64,000 nt of DNA, taken from the NCBI GenBank assembly GCA_963762565.1, contig CAVXLD010000001.1, positions 736,001-800,000 of the forward strand, in the 5' to 3' direction. The notes beneath the pieces are model-generated. The model was not told the origin of the DNA. It made no database searches and worked only from the letters and a program-made list of their open reading frames with translations. The translations under genes were made by a program, and so were the position numbers. Positions 13,128-21,787 of this stretch are shown in pieces. Origin of the DNA: an uncultured Verrucomicrobiae bacterium. Lineage in GTDB: Bacteria; Verrucomicrobiota; Verrucomicrobiia; Chthoniobacterales; JAFAMB01. Each line of letters opens with the position of its first letter. Position 1 is the stretch's first letter.

Positions 13128-14633
13128 TCAGTCCGGAATCAGATGCAGCTTCTGCAGCTCTTGTTTGCTCGGCAGCTGCGAACTATCCCAACCACCACCC
13201 AGAGCTTGGACTAAAGCGACGCTCGCGATCAGGCGTTGTTCCTGGACCTGAAGCGCAGTCTCCTGATCCGTCAGGAGTGTTACCTGAGCGGTGATCACTG
13301 TCGTGTAGGCAATAGTCCCGGCTTGATACTCATTCAATGAGATCTGGACCGCCTGCTGCGCTTTCTGCACAGCATCTCGTTCTACGCCGATCTGCTGTCC
13401 CAATACCCGCAAAGCGACCAATTCATCTTCGACATTTTGGAAGGCGGCAAGAACGGTCTCTCGATAGTTAGCCACACTTTGGTCATACGCTGCCCGAGCC
13501 GCAGCGACCGCGGCGGAACGCTGCCCACCGGTGAGCACGCTTTGACTCGCACTGGCCATGAGTGTCCAAACCTCGCTCGAGGCAGAGAACAAAGCCGCGC
13601 CTGGGTTACCCGCATATCCAAATACAGCCGACAGGTCAAAGGTAGGAAAATAGGCAGCGACCTGTACTCCAATCAGCGCATTCTCTGACTTCATTTGACG
13701 TTCGGCCTCGGCAATATCCGGTCTTCGCTCAAGCAAAATCGAAGGAACACGTGTAGGCACAATCGGAACCCGCTCCGCCAATGAACCCGCCGGAATCGAC
13801 ACCTCGGCTGGCGGTTTTCCGATCAGCAGAGCAATAGCATGTTCGTCTTGGCCGCGTTGGACTCCGACATTAACCAATGCCGCTTGAGCGGCCAGAAGCT
13901 GGGCCTGAGCATTAATCACATCGGACTTCGCGGCTGTGCCCACCGCATACTGGTTTTCGGTTATCTTCAGTGAACGCTCGTAGCCGGCAACAGTATCGGC
14001 CAGCAATTGCTTAAGAGCGTCAGCGTAGCGCAACTCAAAGTAGTCGGTAGCAAGTGTGGCTTGAGCAGACAGCTTAGCTGCTGCCAATTCCGCTGCGCTT
14101 ACTTGGGCGCTCGCCACGCTGCTTTCAACGGTCCGGCGAATCTTACCCCATACGTCTGGTTCCCACGTCGCCGTGCCTTCTAAAGAATAAGAGGTAACGG
14201 CCCCGCTATTGAATCCGTTCGAGCCTCCGGATTTCTGCCGTTCAACTTGAGGTGACACGCTCACGGAAGGGAAAAAACTGGACTGCTGTTCATGCACCGT
14301 GGCCTGCGCTTCCTGATACGCGGCTTCCGCTGCCTTAACATTCTGGTTTGAGATATTAACCTGGCTTTCGAGCGCTTCGAGCGTTGGGTCCCGGTAAATC
14401 GACCACCAGGCGCCCCGGTTCATTGTGTCATTAGGCGTGGCTACTTTCCAGCCCTGGTACTCCTTATATGTGCTTGGGACGGGGGCTGAAAGGCGATGAT
14501 AATTTGGGCCGACCGAGCATGATAACATTGCAATGGAGAACGCGGCGAGGAACACCTGACGAAACGGCGAAAGGGCGAAAGGGCGAAACGGCGAAACAGC
14601 CCGTTGTGGGTAGGGATTGCGTAGATGATCCAT
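13128..14633 (-). CDS. RND efflux outer-membrane factor, NodT/OprM-type lipoprotein
   Basis: Lipobox-like MLSC followed by SVGPNY, WWSIY.DP.L, WEPDVWGKIRR, LLERRPDIAEAER, LVQALGGGW. The 5' end is interrupted by a repeat cassette (see findings). Confidence 0.93.
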   Translation of the reverse strand: MDHLRNPYPQRAVSPFRPFALSPFRQVFLAAFSIAMLSCSVGPNYHRLSAPVPSTYKEYQGWKVATPNDTMNRGAWWSIYRDPTLEALESQVNISNQNVKAAEAAYQEAQATVHEQQSSFFPSVSVSPQVERQKSGGSNGFNSGAVTSYSLEGTATWEPDVWGKIRRTVESSVASAQVSAAELAAAKLSAQATLATDYFELRYADALKQLLADTVAGYERSLKITENQYAVGTAAKSDVINAQAQLLAAQAALVNVGVQRGQDEHAIALLIGKPPAEVSIPAGSLAERVPIVPTRVPSILLERRPDIAEAERQMKSENALIGVQVAAYFPTFDLSAVFGYAGNPGAALFSASSEVWTLMASASQSVLTGGQRSAAVAAARAAYDQSVANYRETVLAAFQNVEDELVALRVLGQQIGVERDAVQKAQQAVQISLNEYQAGTIAYTTVITAQVTLLTDQETALQVQEQRLIASVALVQALGGGWDSSQLPSKQELQKLHLIPD

Positions 14634-14766
14634 CAATGTAGTCGTTTAAATTCGGAGCTCAAAATGCTCCTTCGGAGCCGATTCTGGGTTTTCAAGCCTC
14701 GTGACGACCCGAGCTGTCGCCCAAAATAATCGCCGTTTCGCCCATTCGCCCTGTCGCCGTTTCGTC
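14558..14766. mobile_element. 209-bp palindromic insert with 37-bp octamer-repeat arms (GGCGAAAC/GGCGAAAG units)
   Basis: 14558-14594 and 14730-14766 are inverted repeats with 2 mismatches in 37 bp. Mobility is inferred. Confidence 0.7.
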
Positions 14767-14776
14767 GTCTCGCCAT
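14633..14776 (-). CDS. 47-aa ORF spanning most of the insert, overlapping the mdtC stop and the OMF start by TGATG
   Basis: Manual translation MARRRNGDRANGRNGDYFGRQLGSSRGLKTQNRLRRSILSSEFKRLH*. Translation in vivo is unproven. Confidence 0.4.
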   Translation of the reverse strand: MARRRNGDRANGRNGDYFGRQLGSSRGLKTQNRLRRSILSSEFKRLH

Positions 14777-17700
14777 CACGCTAACCGCCGCCGGCTTGCC
14801 GGGTGCCTCAATTTTTCGAACCAGAGACTTAAGCGGTCGAGGTAGAGATAAATCACCGGCGTCGTATAAAGTGTCAGGATCTGGCTAATAACCAAACCAC
14901 CAATGATTGATACCCCTAAAGGCCGTCGGAGCTCCGAGCCGTAGCCGCTCGCGATCACTAGCGGAAACGCGCCCAGGATCGCAGCGAAAGTTGTCATCAT
15001 GATGGGACGAAATCGCACCAGACTCGCTTTGAAGATCGCATCGTGCGAGCTGAGAAGTTCTTCCCGTTCGGCCTGAAGCGCAAAATCAACCATCAATATT
15101 GCGTTCTTTTTAACGATCCCGATTAACAAGATCATGCCCAGCATCGCAATGATGCTGAACTCCATATTGAATAGGATCAAGGCGATCAACGCTCCTAACG
15201 TTGCTGACGGCAGCGTTGAGAGAATCGTAATCGGATGGATGTAACTCTCATAAAGAACGCCGAGAATTACATAAACTGCGGCTAACGCCGCCAGGATGAG
15301 AATCGGTTCGTCTTTAAGAGAAGACTGGAACGCGTTGGCAGTCCCAGCAAAGGTTCCGTGAATAGAGACAGGCATATGAATCTGGCCAATCGTCTCCTGA
15401 ATCGCGGCTACGGCATCGCTCAGGGAATAACCAGGGGCCAGATTGAATGAGATCGTCGACGCCACAAAAAGGCTCTGATGGTTCACTGAAAGAGGTGCAT
15501 GATCGAACTCATAATGACTAAACGCCGCCAGCAGGACCATTGGTTCTACCTCAGTCGTTACAGCAGCCCCACTGGAAGCGCTGGATTTTCCCGCTACCGC
15601 CAATGCATTCGTTGCCTGATTCACCGCCGAGCTGGTGCTGCGTGAGGTGCTGGCGCCATTGTTAGAGCTGGTAGCAGAGTTCGTCCCACTGGAGAAGGTG
15701 CCTGTTACTGCGTTAGTTGACTCGGTGCCGGCAGCAGTTTGACCCTGCGTACTAACATAGAGTTTTTTTAACGTATCAGGATCCTGCCAATACTGCGGTG
15801 CTACCTCCATAACCACGGAATACTGGTTCATGGCATTATAAATGGTAGAAACCTGGCGCTCCCCAAACGCGTCGTACAACGTGTTATCGACGGTGCTGGG
15901 AAACAATCCGAAGCGTCGCATGGTCAGCCGATCAATCTTCAAATCGGCTTGTAATCCGTTTTGTTGTTGATCGGAATTGAGATCGGTTAATTCGGGACGC
16001 TCTCTGAGCGCGGCGAGCAGCTTGGGGCCCCAGGCCAGTAGTTCACTCGTGTCATCGGCTTGCAGGGTATACTGATATTCTGACAGGCTTATCCGGCCGC
16101 CGACGCGAATATCTTGCATTGGGAAGAGAAAAAGGCGGGCGCCTGAAACCTGAACCAGTTTCGCGCGCAGGCGAGCTGCGACAATCCCAACTGAATCTCG
16201 CTCTGACAGCGATTTCAAGGTCACCCACACATTGCCAGAATTCGTTTGGCGCCCTCCGGTATTGGCCACCACACTCTCAACTGCCGGATCGTGTTGCACG
16301 ATGTCCTGAATTTGTTCCATCTTCTTCTTCATAAGCTGGAACGAAATCGCTGAGTCCGCCTGAATCCCTCCAAGCAAAGTTCCGGAATCCTGTTCCGGGA
16401 AGAAGTTTTTCGGTACGACGTTGAAGAGATAAAAATTCAGCGCGGTACTGCCGATCAGGATCAGCAGAATCAAAAACGAATGTCTTAACGACCAGCGCAA
16501 AGTTCCTTCGTAGAAACGCAACATGTGGTTGAAGCCCGCTTCGCTGACCCGGGATAACCATTTTGTCCACCCTGCTCGGCGGCTCGCCTCCGCAGCACCG
16601 GCGCGACGGGTCCTTCGCAGGAGTTTTGAACACATCATCGGTGTGGCCGTGAGTGAGAGCACGAGCGAGATCATGACGGCAACCGAAAGCGTAATGGTGA
16701 ACTCGCGAAAAAATCGACCGATAATTCCGCCCATCAAAAGGATCGGTAAAAAGACTCCGATTAGTGACAGACTGATAGAGAAAACAGTAAAGGCGACTTC
16801 CTTGGTTCCGATCAAGGCAGCCTGCAAGCGAGACCGGCCCAGTTCAATTTGCCGCGAAATATTTTCGAGAACGACTACGGCATCATCCACCACAAACCCG
16901 GTCGCTATGGTCAACGCCATCAACGAAAGATTGTTTAAGGAATAACCGAGGAGATACATGGCGGAGAACGTCCCGATAATCGAGATCGGCACCATCACGC
17001 CCGGGATTAGCATCGCCCGGAAGTCTCGCAAAAATACCAGCACAACTAAAATGACTAGCACGACCGCAACTACCAGCGTCTGCTCGGTATCCGCCAGGGA
17101 GGTGCGAATCGTCGCGGTTCGATCGCCGGTGATGATCATGTCGGTACCACCAGGCAGCGAACCCTTTAAGAAAGGCAGGATCGCTTTGATGCGGTCCACG
17201 GTCTGGATTACGTTCGCACCGGGTTGCTTATAAACAACTAACGTTACGGCGGGCTTGCCGTTGATCGAGCCGGCATAACGCAAGCTCTGCACGGAGTCGT
17301 TCACCTCCGCAATATCGGATAACAAGGTCGCCCGGCCGCTACGATAGGCCACAACCAAATCCCGATAATCCGCAGCGTGCGTCGCCTGGTCGTTCGTATA
17401 AACTTGAAACTGGTTGTCCCCGACGTCGATCGCACCTTTCGGGCTATTCGCGTTAGCAGCGGCCAAAGCCGCTCGCACATCTTCCAGCCCGATGCCGTAA
17501 TGCGAGAGCGCATTCGGGTTCAATTCTACTCTAACGGCCGGCAGTGAGCTGCCACCCACGTCGACATTTCCTACCCCTTCGATTTGGGATAATTTCTGTT
17601 GGAGTACGGTCGCTGCGGTGTCGTAAAGCTGACCGGCGGTGCGAGTGGCAGAAGTTAAAGCCACTAACAGAATAGGTGCGTCCGATGGATTATATTTTCG

Positions 17701-18087
17701 ATAGGTTGGGTTACTCCTCAAGTTCGAGGGCAAATCCGCGCGAGCTGCATTGATAGCCGCCTCCACGTCTCGAGCCGCGCCATCGATATCCCGATCAAGC
17801 GAGAACTGTAAGATAATCATTGTCTGACCCAGCGAGCTCCGAGACGTCATCTCGGTGACATCGGCAATAAAACCGAGATGGCGCTCGAGCGGCGCTGCCA
17901 CCGTAGCCGCCATCACATCCGGGCTGGCTCCCGACATGGACGCTTGGATCATCAAGGTCGGAAAATCGACCTGCGGCAGAGGCGCCACCGGTAGAAGCAG
18001 AAGAGCGAGGACTCCCGCAAAAGCGACCCCGACTGTGAGCAGGGTTGTGGCGACCGGTCGTCGAATGAAGATCTCGCTGAAGTTCAT
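14776..18087 (-). CDS. mdtC: RND multidrug efflux permease MdtC-like
   Basis: [52 protein letters not shown]. Second of a tandem RND pair. Confidence 0.9.
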   Translation of the reverse strand: MNFSEIFIRRPVATTLLTVGVAFAGVLALLLLPVAPLPQVDFPTLMIQASMSGASPDVMAATVAAPLERHLGFIADVTEMTSRSSLGQTMIILQFSLDRDIDGAARDVEAAINAARADLPSNLRSNPTYRKYNPSDAPILLVALTSATRTAGQLYDTAATVLQQKLSQIEGVGNVDVGGSSLPAVRVELNPNALSHYGIGLEDVRAALAAANANSPKGAIDVGDNQFQVYTNDQATHAADYRDLVVAYRSGRATLLSDIAEVNDSVQSLRYAGSINGKPAVTLVVYKQPGANVIQTVDRIKAILPFLKGSLPGGTDMIITGDRTATIRTSLADTEQTLVVAVVLVILVVLVFLRDFRAMLIPGVMVPISIIGTFSAMYLLGYSLNNLSLMALTIATGFVVDDAVVVLENISRQIELGRSRLQAALIGTKEVAFTVFSISLSLIGVFLPILLMGGIIGRFFREFTITLSVAVMISLVLSLTATPMMCSKLLRRTRRAGAAEASRRAGWTKWLSRVSEAGFNHMLRFYEGTLRWSLRHSFLILLILIGSTALNFYLFNVVPKNFFPEQDSGTLLGGIQADSAISFQLMKKKMEQIQDIVQHDPAVESVVANTGGRQTNSGNVWVTLKSLSERDSVGIVAARLRAKLVQVSGARLFLFPMQDIRVGGRISLSEYQYTLQADDTSELLAWGPKLLAALRERPELTDLNSDQQQNGLQADLKIDRLTMRRFGLFPSTVDNTLYDAFGERQVSTIYNAMNQYSVVMEVAPQYWQDPDTLKKLYVSTQGQTAAGTESTNAVTGTFSSGTNSATSSNNGASTSRSTSSAVNQATNALAVAGKSSASSGAAVTTEVEPMVLLAAFSHYEFDHAPLSVNHQSLFVASTISFNLAPGYSLSDAVAAIQETIGQIHMPVSIHGTFAGTANAFQSSLKDEPILILAALAAVYVILGVLYESYIHPITILSTLPSATLGALIALILFNMEFSIIAMLGMILLIGIVKKNAILMVDFALQAEREELLSSHDAIFKASLVRFRPIMMTTFAAILGAFPLVIASGYGSELRRPLGVSIIGGLVISQILTLYTTPVIYLYLDRLSLWFEKLRHPASRRRLA

Positions 18088-18388
18088 CCGCAGATTAAAA
18101 GGCAGAGTTTGTAATCCGCAGATTGACGAAACCCGGAGTTAATATCCGCAGATTTCGCAGATTACGCAGATTACGGTTTGAGGTTGTGCAGTGCGGTCGG
18201 GCAAAGAAACCTGCATTGGCGGGACGAGGGTTCTGATATTCGAGAGGCGTACCGGAGCCCCGGTAGTTCCTGCAAATGTCAAAACGCGCATCCCTCCAAT
18301 ACACCTTCCTTTGTCCTATCGTGGTCCACGACCCCAAACCGAAATCTGCGTAATCTGCGGATATTTCCATCTTCGGTGTAATCTGCGG
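18088..18388. mobile_element. 301-bp insert bounded by a perfect 10-bp IR CCGCAGATTA/TAATCTGCGG with internal CGCAGATT tandem units
   Basis: Fills the whole gap between the mdtB stop and the mdtC start. A second nested IR (ATATCCGCAGATT / AATCTGCGGATAT) lies inside. Confidence 0.7.
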
Positions 18389-21525: not shown

Positions 21526-21787
21526 ACAACCGCGAATACACACGAATGGACACGAATAAAAGACTCTAACCGCGGATGAACGCAGATTGACGCAGATGAG
21601 ACATGCCGAACAGGTTCTTCATTCGAAAAACGTGGCAACACCAGGACATCTTCTCTCAACTATCGAAAGACGCTGCGGATCCTCTTTCTCAACCACCGCT
21701 AGTGTGCGGGTATTCTATCTGTGTCAATCTGCGTTCATTGTGGTTGCCGGCCTTTGTTCGCATGCATTCGCGTCAATTCGTGGTTGT
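21526..21787. mobile_element. Two nested decamer-repeat palindromic cassettes (CACGAAT-type outer, CGCAGAT-type inner)
   Basis: Outer arms ACAACCGCGAATACACACGAATGGACACGAAT / TTCGCATGCATTCGCGTCAATTCGTGGTTGT. Inner arms 21568-21597 / 21717-21745. Confidence 0.7.

Follow-up and report, generated by a model that had tools for sequence, protein, structure and literature searches.

How is the last gene of an efflux operon translated when a long palindromic repeat stands between its coding sequence and the stop codon of the gene before it? This question is raised by the junction between an mdtC-type RND permease gene and a gene for a NodT-family outer-membrane factor (OMF), which lies on a stretch of 64,000 nucleotides (nt), hereafter the window, from the 6.1-Mb genome of a soil Verrucomicrobiota (G000, the source genome). 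Coordinates are window positions, and the features of the locus are read on the minus strand. We consider it probable that an old palindrome made of octamer repeats has been co-opted as the start and signal-peptide n-region of the OMF gene, which would be translated by ordinary internal initiation at an ATG at 14633.

Structure of the mdtC-OMF junction

The junction comprises the following features:

14776..18087, minus strand: mdtC-type RND permease gene, taken from the list of open reading frames (ORFs), with its stop TGA at 14778-14776
14774..14776, minus strand: ATG overlapping the mdtC stop (TGATG, 14778-14774), which opens a 47-codon "relay" ORF
14633..14779, minus strand: the small "relay" ORF, 48 codons from GTG 14779 and 47 from ATG 14776; array-encoded, of low complexity and not conserved
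14730..14774, minus strand: 5' array, G-rich on the sense strand, GGCGAGAC GACGAAAC GGCGACAG GGCGAATG GGCGAAAC GGCGA; 5' arm of the hairpin
14595..14729, minus strand: core between the arms, unique in the genome (a BLAST search with the core returned only itself)
14558..14594, minus strand: 3' array, C-rich on the sense strand, TCGCC GTTTCGCC CTTTCGCC CTTTCGCC GTTTCGTC; 3' arm of the hairpin, translated as SPFRPFALSPFR
13128..14633, minus strand: NodT-family OMF gene, the last gene of an mdtA-mdtB-mdtC-OMF cluster

The arrangement described in a first-pass annotation of the window is present at this locus. The mdtC ORF ends in GCG-TGA (14778-14776) and overlaps an ATG; the 47-codon ORF opened by that ATG ends in a second TGATG (14635-14631), whose stop (TGA, 14635-14633) overlaps an ATG in the OMF frame (14633-14631); and from 14766 to 14558 runs a 209-nt stretch with inverted arms of 37 nt each (14558-14594 and 14730-14766), which are 95% complementary and lie 135 nt apart. 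The boundaries given to this insert held only in part. Its arms are where they had been placed, but they consist of tandem 8-nt units that continue outward and the edges are therefore not unique: the 5' array begins at the G of ATG 14776, 2 nt past the mdtC stop, and so extends to 14774. A second, offset arm pairing (I2) extends to 14781. Folding of the RNA from 14540 to 14790 gave -115 kcal/mol as against -84.6 +/- 4.8 kcal/mol in 200 shuffled sequences (z = -6.3), none of which was as stable, and the hairpin structure thus exceeds chance expectation.

Within the core, the upstream half (14660-14729) is strongly variable between strains. One strain variant, represented by an X5 contig that is about 97% identical over 1 kb, has about 11 differences per 70 nt clustered at 14652-14729, while its flanking genes differ by a few percent only. 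The OMF ORF itself (13128..14636) is intact over 502 codons, and its product matches TIGR01845 with 409.6 bits (cut-off 210), residues 32-482 aligning with profile positions 2-460 of 460.

A single, old origin of the element

Orthologous mdtC-OMF junctions were collected from protein searches of relatives, metagenome contigs and species genomes, and a maximum-likelihood tree was built from 33 OMF rows. Sequences in which fewer than 400 residues follow the Cys (L035, L087, L094, L095 and L101) and exact duplicates (L052, L058, L061, L068 and L089) were dropped before the tree was made, and those without a Cys motif (L069, L070, L077, L082-L085, L092, L093, L097-L100 and L102) went unscored. The nearest OMF orthologs all come from metagenome-assembled genomes titled Verrucomicrobiota or Verrucomicrobiae. 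A clade of 14 rows (support 100/99) carries C-rich arrays between mdtC and the lipobox Cys in every row, and the spacer from mdtC stop to Cys measures 121-444 nt in the 11 rows in which that stop was found. None of the 19 rows outside the clade, two of which end at contig ends, has an array; where the mdtC end was found, their stop-to-Cys spacer is 53-103 nt and the ATG of the OMF either lies close behind the mdtC stop or overlaps it. These outside proteins have 18-22 residues before the Cys (e.g. MSLIRVIRQSVNCAVLLILAAGC). Because arrays are carried by 14 of 14 clade rows and by none of the 19 others, the comparison indicates that the element is old and has a single origin, at the base of a clade of roughly genus rank.

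The insert-free orthologs also support the proposal that a palindromic repeat has come to separate the OMF start from the mdtC stop. ATGA overlaps join the two genes in insert-free orthologs such as L034, L133 (MRLIGPTARAFACISLLVLAAC), L135 and L140, including further ones at 72-80% identity. A fossil of this overlap, GCATGA, is preserved at 7 of the 8 clade loci other than the source genome with a visible mdtC stop, the eighth (L051) reading GCATAA. The source genome itself reads GCGTGATG (GCG-TGA-TG): the old ATG has mutated, and ATG 14776 lies two bases from it and is, by comparison with the GCATGA loci, not homologous to the fossil start of the relatives. The expectation that orthologs would begin MARQVF-like directly after the mdtC stop was accordingly half right. 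Insert-free OMF genes do start at or just after that stop, but they begin with M-R-L-I-G-P.., M-S-L-I-R.., M-I-F-F-G-P.. and the like, a leader such as M-R-L-I-G-P-T-A-R-A-F-A... is unlike MARQVF, and the supposed ancestral codons 2-4, GCG AGA C, are an array unit (GGCGAGAC). Judged by these relatives, the old n-region of 8-9 codons is gone from the OMF genes of the clade.

Two minor observations concern the same junction in individual relatives. L032 (from genome G004), L055 and L053 carry a different palindromic element, with inverted ends of about 21 nt and of the GAGCTCCGTAGGAGCGACAT type, between a decayed 5' array and the conserved block described below, and its presence there suggests that the mdtC-OMF junction has been hit repeatedly. 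In L088 and L089, metagenome contigs with identical OMF sequences, the mdtC frame continues into that of the OMF, with neither a stop in between nor a Met in the linker, which represents either a fused mdtC-OMF ORF or an assembly frameshift.

A conserved ATG within the element is the probable OMF start

Two features of the core emerged from the alignment of clade loci:

14625..14659, minus strand: conserved block of about 35 nt, GCTCCGAATYTRAACGACTAYATTR-ATG-GAY-CAY, from an anchored alignment of 10 clade loci and L086; proposed OMF translation-initiation region
14631..14633, minus strand: ATG, proposed OMF start (M-D-H), in frame and conserved in every one of the 10 distinct loci that bear the block

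The block, ...AAACGACTAYATTR-ATG-GAY-CAY, is conserved at all ten loci that keep the core. It is near-invariant from about -26 to +9 relative to the ATG, and the sequence on either side cannot be aligned. Since synonymous divergence (dS) between the block-bearing loci exceeds 2 and is saturated, the near-invariance of the block indicates that it is constrained. Two stop codons accompany the ATG: an in-frame stop at -15 in nine of the ten loci, and a T-R-A stop (TGA or TAA) overlapping the ATG in all ten and in L086, with only purines found at position -1.

Downstream of this ATG the reading frame has been maintained across a leader whose length changes. The distance from ATG to Cys is 114 nt at six loci, 138 at two, 144 and 147 at one each and 117 in L086, all multiples of 3 despite an array step of 8 nt, and none of the ten has a stop before the Cys. 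A net 9-nt insertion inside the 3' array was found in one X6 contig and one X7 contig. In L057 the M-D-H ATG is the sole in-frame ATG, GTG or TTG before the Cys, and in L054, L056 and L051 the only other in-frame candidate is a TTG one codon upstream of it. All 14 clade OMF ORFs are open, and the ratio of nonsynonymous to synonymous divergence (dN/dS) of the OMF gene against its clade orthologs is 0.030-0.057 in the five of six pairs for which it could be computed, with dS above 2. As far as codon substitution patterns can reveal, the OMF is shown to have been kept functional under strong purifying selection, with its frame maintained across the leader. The first-pass annotation had noted that ATG 14633 lies in the OMF frame and adds a repeat-encoded leader, MDHLRNPYPQRAVSPFRPFALSPFRQVFLAAFSIAMLSC; its conservation among the clade loci now marks it as the likely present start.

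These data bear on a different account, according to which the OMF gene of the source genome is in effect crippled or is started at GTG 14555 (fM-FLAAFSIAMLSC). The upstream leader would then go untranslated, and the main role of the hairpin would be to uncouple the OMF from mdtABC, as a barrier or by serving as an RNase III site. In favour of this, that GTG is in frame, 12 codons before the Cys, and the genome encodes other OMF paralogs (33-43% identity). However, in L057, L054, L056 and L051 no start codon follows the M-D-H ATG before the Cys is reached, the leader changes length by multiples of 3 and is stop-free at all ten loci, and the 502 codons of the ORF are intact, with a dN/dS of about 0.03. 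A 12-residue signal peptide without a charged n-region would moreover be atypical. Cleavage of the hairpin has a precedent in Neisseria, where long perfect stems in operon RNAs formed by Correia elements, including those in mtrCDE transcripts, are described as RNase III substrates (PMC10969869). On balance we regard a crippled or GTG-started gene as very improbable.

The block is a candidate initiation site, and a protein- or RNA-binding site or a promoter are other conceivable roles. A search of the source genome for block copies with up to 5 mismatches returned the locus itself and two poor matches, and we accordingly discarded the idea of a regulatory motif common to other loci. A palindrome beside the block, GCTCC-N3-4-GGAGC, was considered as a repeat family and set aside, its 37 occurrences against about 19 expected not clearly marking it as one. 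No sigma-70-like promoter was found at the block and no terminator-like site in a scan of 14300-15000; we disregarded the only promoter-like site on the minus strand in that interval (14525-14496), which falls among the signal-peptide codons and hence downstream of the start.

The 3' arm is predicted to form the n-region of an extended signal peptide

Translation from ATG 14633 gives one further feature:

14517..14633, minus strand: predicted extended lipoprotein signal peptide, 38 residues followed by Cys39 (TGC 14519-14517)

This leader consists of an n-region of 26 residues, an h-region (VFLAAFSIAML) and a lipobox-like end, M-L-S-C, followed by SVGPNY. The h-region and the ...M-L-S-C-SVGPNY segment are present and conserved. 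The 3' arm is read as S-P-F-R-P-F-A-L-S-P-F-R, which forms part of the n-region and is the source of its arginines. Since the TIGR01845 match begins at residue 32 of the OMF protein (P0001), the first 30 or so residues are an extension relative to the family. We infer that a leader extended in this way still targets the protein for lipoprotein export.

The hairpin and the relay ORF appear dispensable

In predicted folds of 11 loci, a long arm-to-arm helix encloses the ATG in L031, L033, L054, L056, L057 and L053, is weaker in L079 and is absent from L051, L032 and L090, in which the 5' array has decayed or been deleted; L086 folds otherwise. L090, L080 and L081 retain only the C-rich array, with the ATG adjoining the mdtC stop, and because they are nested beside L057, which has the full element, their state represents a secondary deletion. 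A comparable loss was found in a natural variant almost identical to the source genome:

14660..14777, no strand: 118 nt missing in the variant (X6 record 12), comprising the 5' arm, the relay-ORF start and the upstream half of the core

The mdtC stop of this variant keeps its codon position but reads TAG, and it lies 24 nt ahead of ATG 14633. The contig shows 0 differences over 86 nt on one side of the joint and 3 over 70 nt on the other, and the joint is exact to about 8 nt only, with two mismatches falling within 8 nt of it. All variant evidence consists of DNA contigs from four runs. A comparison of own and cross-species duplex energies detected no selection on arm pairing itself: own arms pair no better than arms taken from different species (own-pair ranks among 17 of 1, 12, 5, 3, 11, 6, 11, 11 and 12), so pairing is a generic property of the unit. 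Given the loss of the 5' arm in L051, in L032, in the L090 lineage and in the X6 variant, these sequences indicate that the gene can dispense with both hairpin and relay ORF; in the source genome a contribution of the relay is possible, but it is not the conserved mechanism.

This conclusion weighs on the stop-start relay that the first-pass annotation had put forward. Spelled out, OMF synthesis in the source genome would depend on restart at ATG 14776, translation of the 47-codon ORF through the 5' arm with melting of the hairpin, termination at TGA 14635-14633 and a second restart at ATG 14633. Its anatomy is real. Both TGATG overlaps and the open 47-codon frame exist, a T-R-A stop overlapping the ATG is kept at all ten block-bearing loci and L086, and in G002 (L033) an ORF in that frame starts 7 nt past the mdtC stop and ends in TAATG. 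It is the dependence on the relay, and its conservation, that did not stand. An ORF with an in-frame ATG or GTG start near mdtC that runs to the overlap occurs only in L031 and L033 among 9 scorable loci, whereas five others open for only 36-72 nt without a start codon and L054 for 63 nt with a single TTG; the X6 variant lacks the relay start and most of the relay ORF. Of the two hallmarks of termination-reinitiation, the stop-start overlap is thus found and a conserved upstream ORF reaching the stop is not. The chance that ATG 14776 would fall in the right frame and stay open for 47 codons is about 0.05-0.1, an uncomputed estimate for arrays that are poor in stops. We therefore think it unlikely that the relay carries OMF synthesis.

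The same losses tell against excision of the palindrome from the RNA, or its bypass by ribosomes, either of which would restore MARQVFLAAFSIAMLSC from the upstream ATG. Exact deletion of 14766..14558 does, as had been noted, join ATG GCG AGA C to AG GTG TTC in frame (GTG 14555 being OMF codon 27) and yields a plausible short lipoprotein signal peptide, and the arms do form a very stable hairpin. Yet an in-frame join after one chosen deletion is expected by chance in about 1 case in 3, many edges can be chosen in periodic sequence, and the GCG AGA C on which the join depends is an array unit. ATG 14776 is not ancestral, and insert-free orthologs lack MARQVF. An Rfam scan of 14000-15300 (E <=1), which included self-splicing introns, returned two matches with E values of 0.4-1, far below gathering scores, and the edges of the palindrome offer no matching take-off and landing codons (AGA C|... 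as against ...C|AG GTG). Lineages without the 5' arm have nothing to excise and still show purifying selection on an intact OMF ORF, and excision or bypass would leave the conservation of the internal ATG, its frame and the upstream block unexplained. Such a step is unneeded, and we find it scarcely credible.

A further possibility is that the block, perched atop a 40-60-bp array hairpin that touches the mdtC stop, is a selected translational device, a hairpin-gated re-initiation pad; we rate this as quite unlikely. Ribosomes arriving from mdtC or from short ORFs in the 5' arm would melt the stem and be released at the two T-R-A stops before and on the ATG, a sequence of events that seems to us improbable to a similar degree. 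It is equally doubtful that a pad assembled from a selfish repeat makes OMF synthesis depend in this way on translation of the pump genes. Such a pad would fit with variation that is confined to purines and so leaves both stops in place, with the strictly conserved block, and with a 5' array still recognisable in 6-7 of 10 lineages despite dS above 2. The existence of lineages that have lost the arm makes the gating inessential.

A model for co-option, and points that weigh against it

Internal initiation at ATG 14633 thus remains the reading that we favour, and it suggests the following course of events. The octamer element would have come to lie directly after the mdtC stop in the common ancestor of the clade. 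As the junction had no spacer (ATGA), the element would have cut the old ATG and the 8-9-codon n-region off the OMF signal peptide, and the gene would have been rescued by an in-frame ATG inside the core of the element (14633, M-D-H). The 3' array is free of stops in all frames and in the OMF frame encodes Arg-rich S-P-F-R-P-F-A-L repeats, which could serve as a long, positively charged n-region before the retained h-region and lipobox Cys. Ribosomes would initiate internally on the operon mRNA at the A/U-rich block, which the predicted fold places in a largely unpaired hairpin top. The small TGATG...TGATG ORF may add some termination-reinitiation in the source genome without being required.

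Several observations weigh against this model. The conserved block contains no Shine-Dalgarno motif; genome-wide, such motifs were crudely estimated to be rare, at 11.5% as against 6.6% in a control window, an estimate built on unreliable start calls, many of which are wrong to judge by the 3-nt periodicity upstream of them. The source genome has the alternative in-frame GTG 12 codons before the Cys, and the assignment of ATG 14633 as the OMF start rests on comparison between genomes. Clade rows are related to one another, so that "10 of 10" stands for fewer than ten independent events. The n-region of 26 residues is long for a lipoprotein, and M at lipobox position -3 is unusual. The X6 deletion allele is a single 156-nt contig with a depth of 4.3. 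Finally, as regards an origin by transposition, a target duplication is absent and the core is unique in the genome.

The octamer palindromes form a genus-wide repeat class

The arms belong to a repeat class built on the 8-nt unit GGCGAAAN, and in each palindrome the GGCGAAAN array comes first and the complement array second. The arm sequence has 110 BLAST matches across the source genome, and a census with a minimum of 3 in-phase octamer units counted 168 arrays, which contain 3-13 units. These include 48 convergent pairs in which the G-rich array comes first and none in the opposite arrangement, with cores of 9-334 nt between the paired arrays. One subfamily of four copies (C1:546989-547228, C3:186210-186445, C6:57826-58055 and C7:511399-511606) has a core of about 230 nt in common, at 82-84% identity, that matches itself in both orientations; from this likeness it follows that these copies were duplicated as whole units.

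The surroundings of the elements were surveyed at the 96 ends of the 48 pairs, using ORFs of at least 150 amino acids within a reach of 400 nt. Stops are faced by 47 of the 96 ends; the distance to the stop is at most 6 nt for 16 of these and at most 20 nt for 32. Starts are faced by 29, mostly from 34-79 nt away and in only 2 cases from within 20 nt, and the other 20 ends have no such ORF within reach. A pattern of three units was matched 169 times in the source genome, 169 in G003, 99 in G004, 70 in G005 and 21 in G002. G001 (89% complete), the sixth genome of the genus covered by the search, has none, while the pattern is abundant in the other five. The other 35 genomes searched have at most 3 matches each. 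A reversed control pattern gave 0 matches in the source genome and, among the other 35 genomes, 0 except in G014 (7) and G026 (1). The octamer palindromes are thus a genus-wide class of intergenic elements, usually flush against stop codons.

How such an element reached the OMF start is a separate question, and arrival by insertion and growth in place by slippage and arm copying are both possible. Inspection of the flanks at all 96 ends found no target-site duplication and no sharp termini, and array ends are variable. Compared with a miniature inverted-repeat transposable element (MITE), the class lacks defined terminal inverted repeats (TIRs) with sharp ends and a duplication, and the OMF copy lacks a homologous multi-copy core. 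Growth in place, which is compatible with the co-opted function, would have begun with slippage from a native ..TTCGCC.. in the signal-peptide codons and gained its second arm by arm-to-arm copying. The missing duplication and termini fit this, as do unit numbers that vary from 3 to 13, a core of the OMF copy that is unique in the genome, and the CATTCGCC that insert-free L133 has at its n/h boundary (R-A-F-A = CGG GCA TTC GCC). It is harder to square with the pairs whose cores of about 230 nt were duplicated as units, with the same polarity of 48 out of 48 pairs, or with a conserved block and core that have no counterpart in insert-free orthologs. We hold growth in place to be a possible origin, though not a likely one.

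C-rich octamer arrays in open frames also lie just upstream of other gene starts in the source genome (C7:544727, C5:165070, C1:524791 and C10:507023). The genes behind them, which include a response regulator and an adenylosuccinate synthase, have obvious downstream Mets, so that the OMF, with its translated array, appears to be an exception.

Comparison with known repeat elements

Hairpins beside stop codons are familiar from several bacterial systems. REP, BIME and REPIN sequences are multi-copy, hairpin-forming intergenic repeats located past stops, between operon genes and between convergent genes. The octamer elements resemble them in being multi-copy, hairpin-forming and placed just past stops, but have no REP consensus with a fixed 5' tetranucleotide, and their arms are arrays of variable unit number. 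In the programmed bypass of phage T4 gene 60, a hairpin by a stop codon acts together with matched take-off and landing codons, and ATGA or TGATG overlaps are a form of stop-start coupling. The OMF locus shares with these the hairpin by a stop and the overlaps at both ends of the small ORF; unlike them, it has no matched codons, its relay ORF is not conserved and its hairpin is dispensable in relatives.

The closest architecture is that of the repeats described for Xanthomonas (GGGAATC) and Nostoc, which are dispersed tandem 7-9-nt G-rich units, many of them arranged as convergent array pairs on opposite strands (Rehm et al. 2015, PLoS One, PMC4692102). According to the same source they are mostly intergenic, often at most 50 bp from stop codons or overlapping them, and under-represented in coding regions. 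The octamer class matches this description in its at least 3 tandem units at many loci, its convergent arrays and its stop-adjacent intergenic position. It departs from the description in its unit, GGCGAAAN, and its restriction to one verrucomicrobial genus; in its short G-runs, which reach GG or GGG only if variable positions are G and make a G-quadruplex doubtful; and in that the OMF copy is partly coding and would supply a start region and part of a signal peptide.

Among repeats reported from efflux operons, Correia elements of Neisseria are small inverted-repeat elements that occur in RND operons such as mtrCDE, where the co-transcribed hairpin can alter pump expression (PMC10969869; PMC2649163). 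The OMF element is likewise a small inverted repeat inside an RND efflux operon. As described there, Correia elements differ from it in having defined TIRs, a TA duplication, an IHF site and promoter-forming ends, and the mtr copy is found immediately after the operon promoter whereas the OMF element lies inside a coding start; RNase III cleavage is only an analogy here. Rickettsia palindromic elements are reported to be translated in frame within host genes (PMC10969869), and the OMF palindrome is similarly tolerated in an ORF through one open, translated frame of a functional protein. The Rickettsia elements, in that account, are internal insertions that add a conserved peptide module, whereas the OMF element has one arm translated and donates the start codon, and the peptide that it adds is a variable signal-peptide n-region that would be removed on maturation.

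Among the hits listed by a narrow full-text literature search, none was, by its title or abstract opening, about a repeat that donates a start codon and a signal-peptide n-region, a result that does not show its absence from print. What appears new here is the donation of both by a palindromic repeat; the architecture of the class and the translation of palindromes within ORFs are already known. If our reading is correct, the locus offers a dated natural case in which a repeat hairpin invaded a spacer-less operon junction and the downstream gene was rescued by a repeat-derived start and n-region, an arrangement that has persisted through saturating synonymous divergence. It would imply that about 20-30 residues encoded by a repeat can be accommodated in the n-region of a lipoprotein signal peptide, and that a free-standing initiation site can take over from tight stop-start coupling in the operon of an RND pump. 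For annotation it counsels caution, as a gene start may sit inside a palindrome in repeat-rich Verrucomicrobiota. The block, lacking a Shine-Dalgarno motif, is a candidate model for initiation-site recognition in a little-studied phylum. No new RNA-processing or decoding mechanism is revealed by the locus.

Other features of the gene cluster

The mdtC-type protein scores 1375 bits against the NCBIfam profile NF007905 (MdtC), under the equivalog cut-off of 1774, and its match is split in two stretches. The protein (14776-18087) has 1103 amino acids as against about 1025 in the profile, and its ortholog in G004 (L032) has a low-complexity segment rich in Ser, Thr, Gly and Asn in the periplasmic part. 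Array-armed hairpins are found at all three junctions of the mdtA-mdtB-mdtC-OMF cluster. The mdtB-mdtC junction (18088-18388) contains a nested palindrome whose arms are made of tandem 7-nt units of the CGCAGAT type, the outer arms (18088-18106 and 18370-18388) spanning from the mdtB TAA stop to the mdtC ATG. At the mdtA-mdtB junction (21576-21738) lies a palindrome with 22-nt arms that are 95% complementary and contain a CGCAGAT-type unit.

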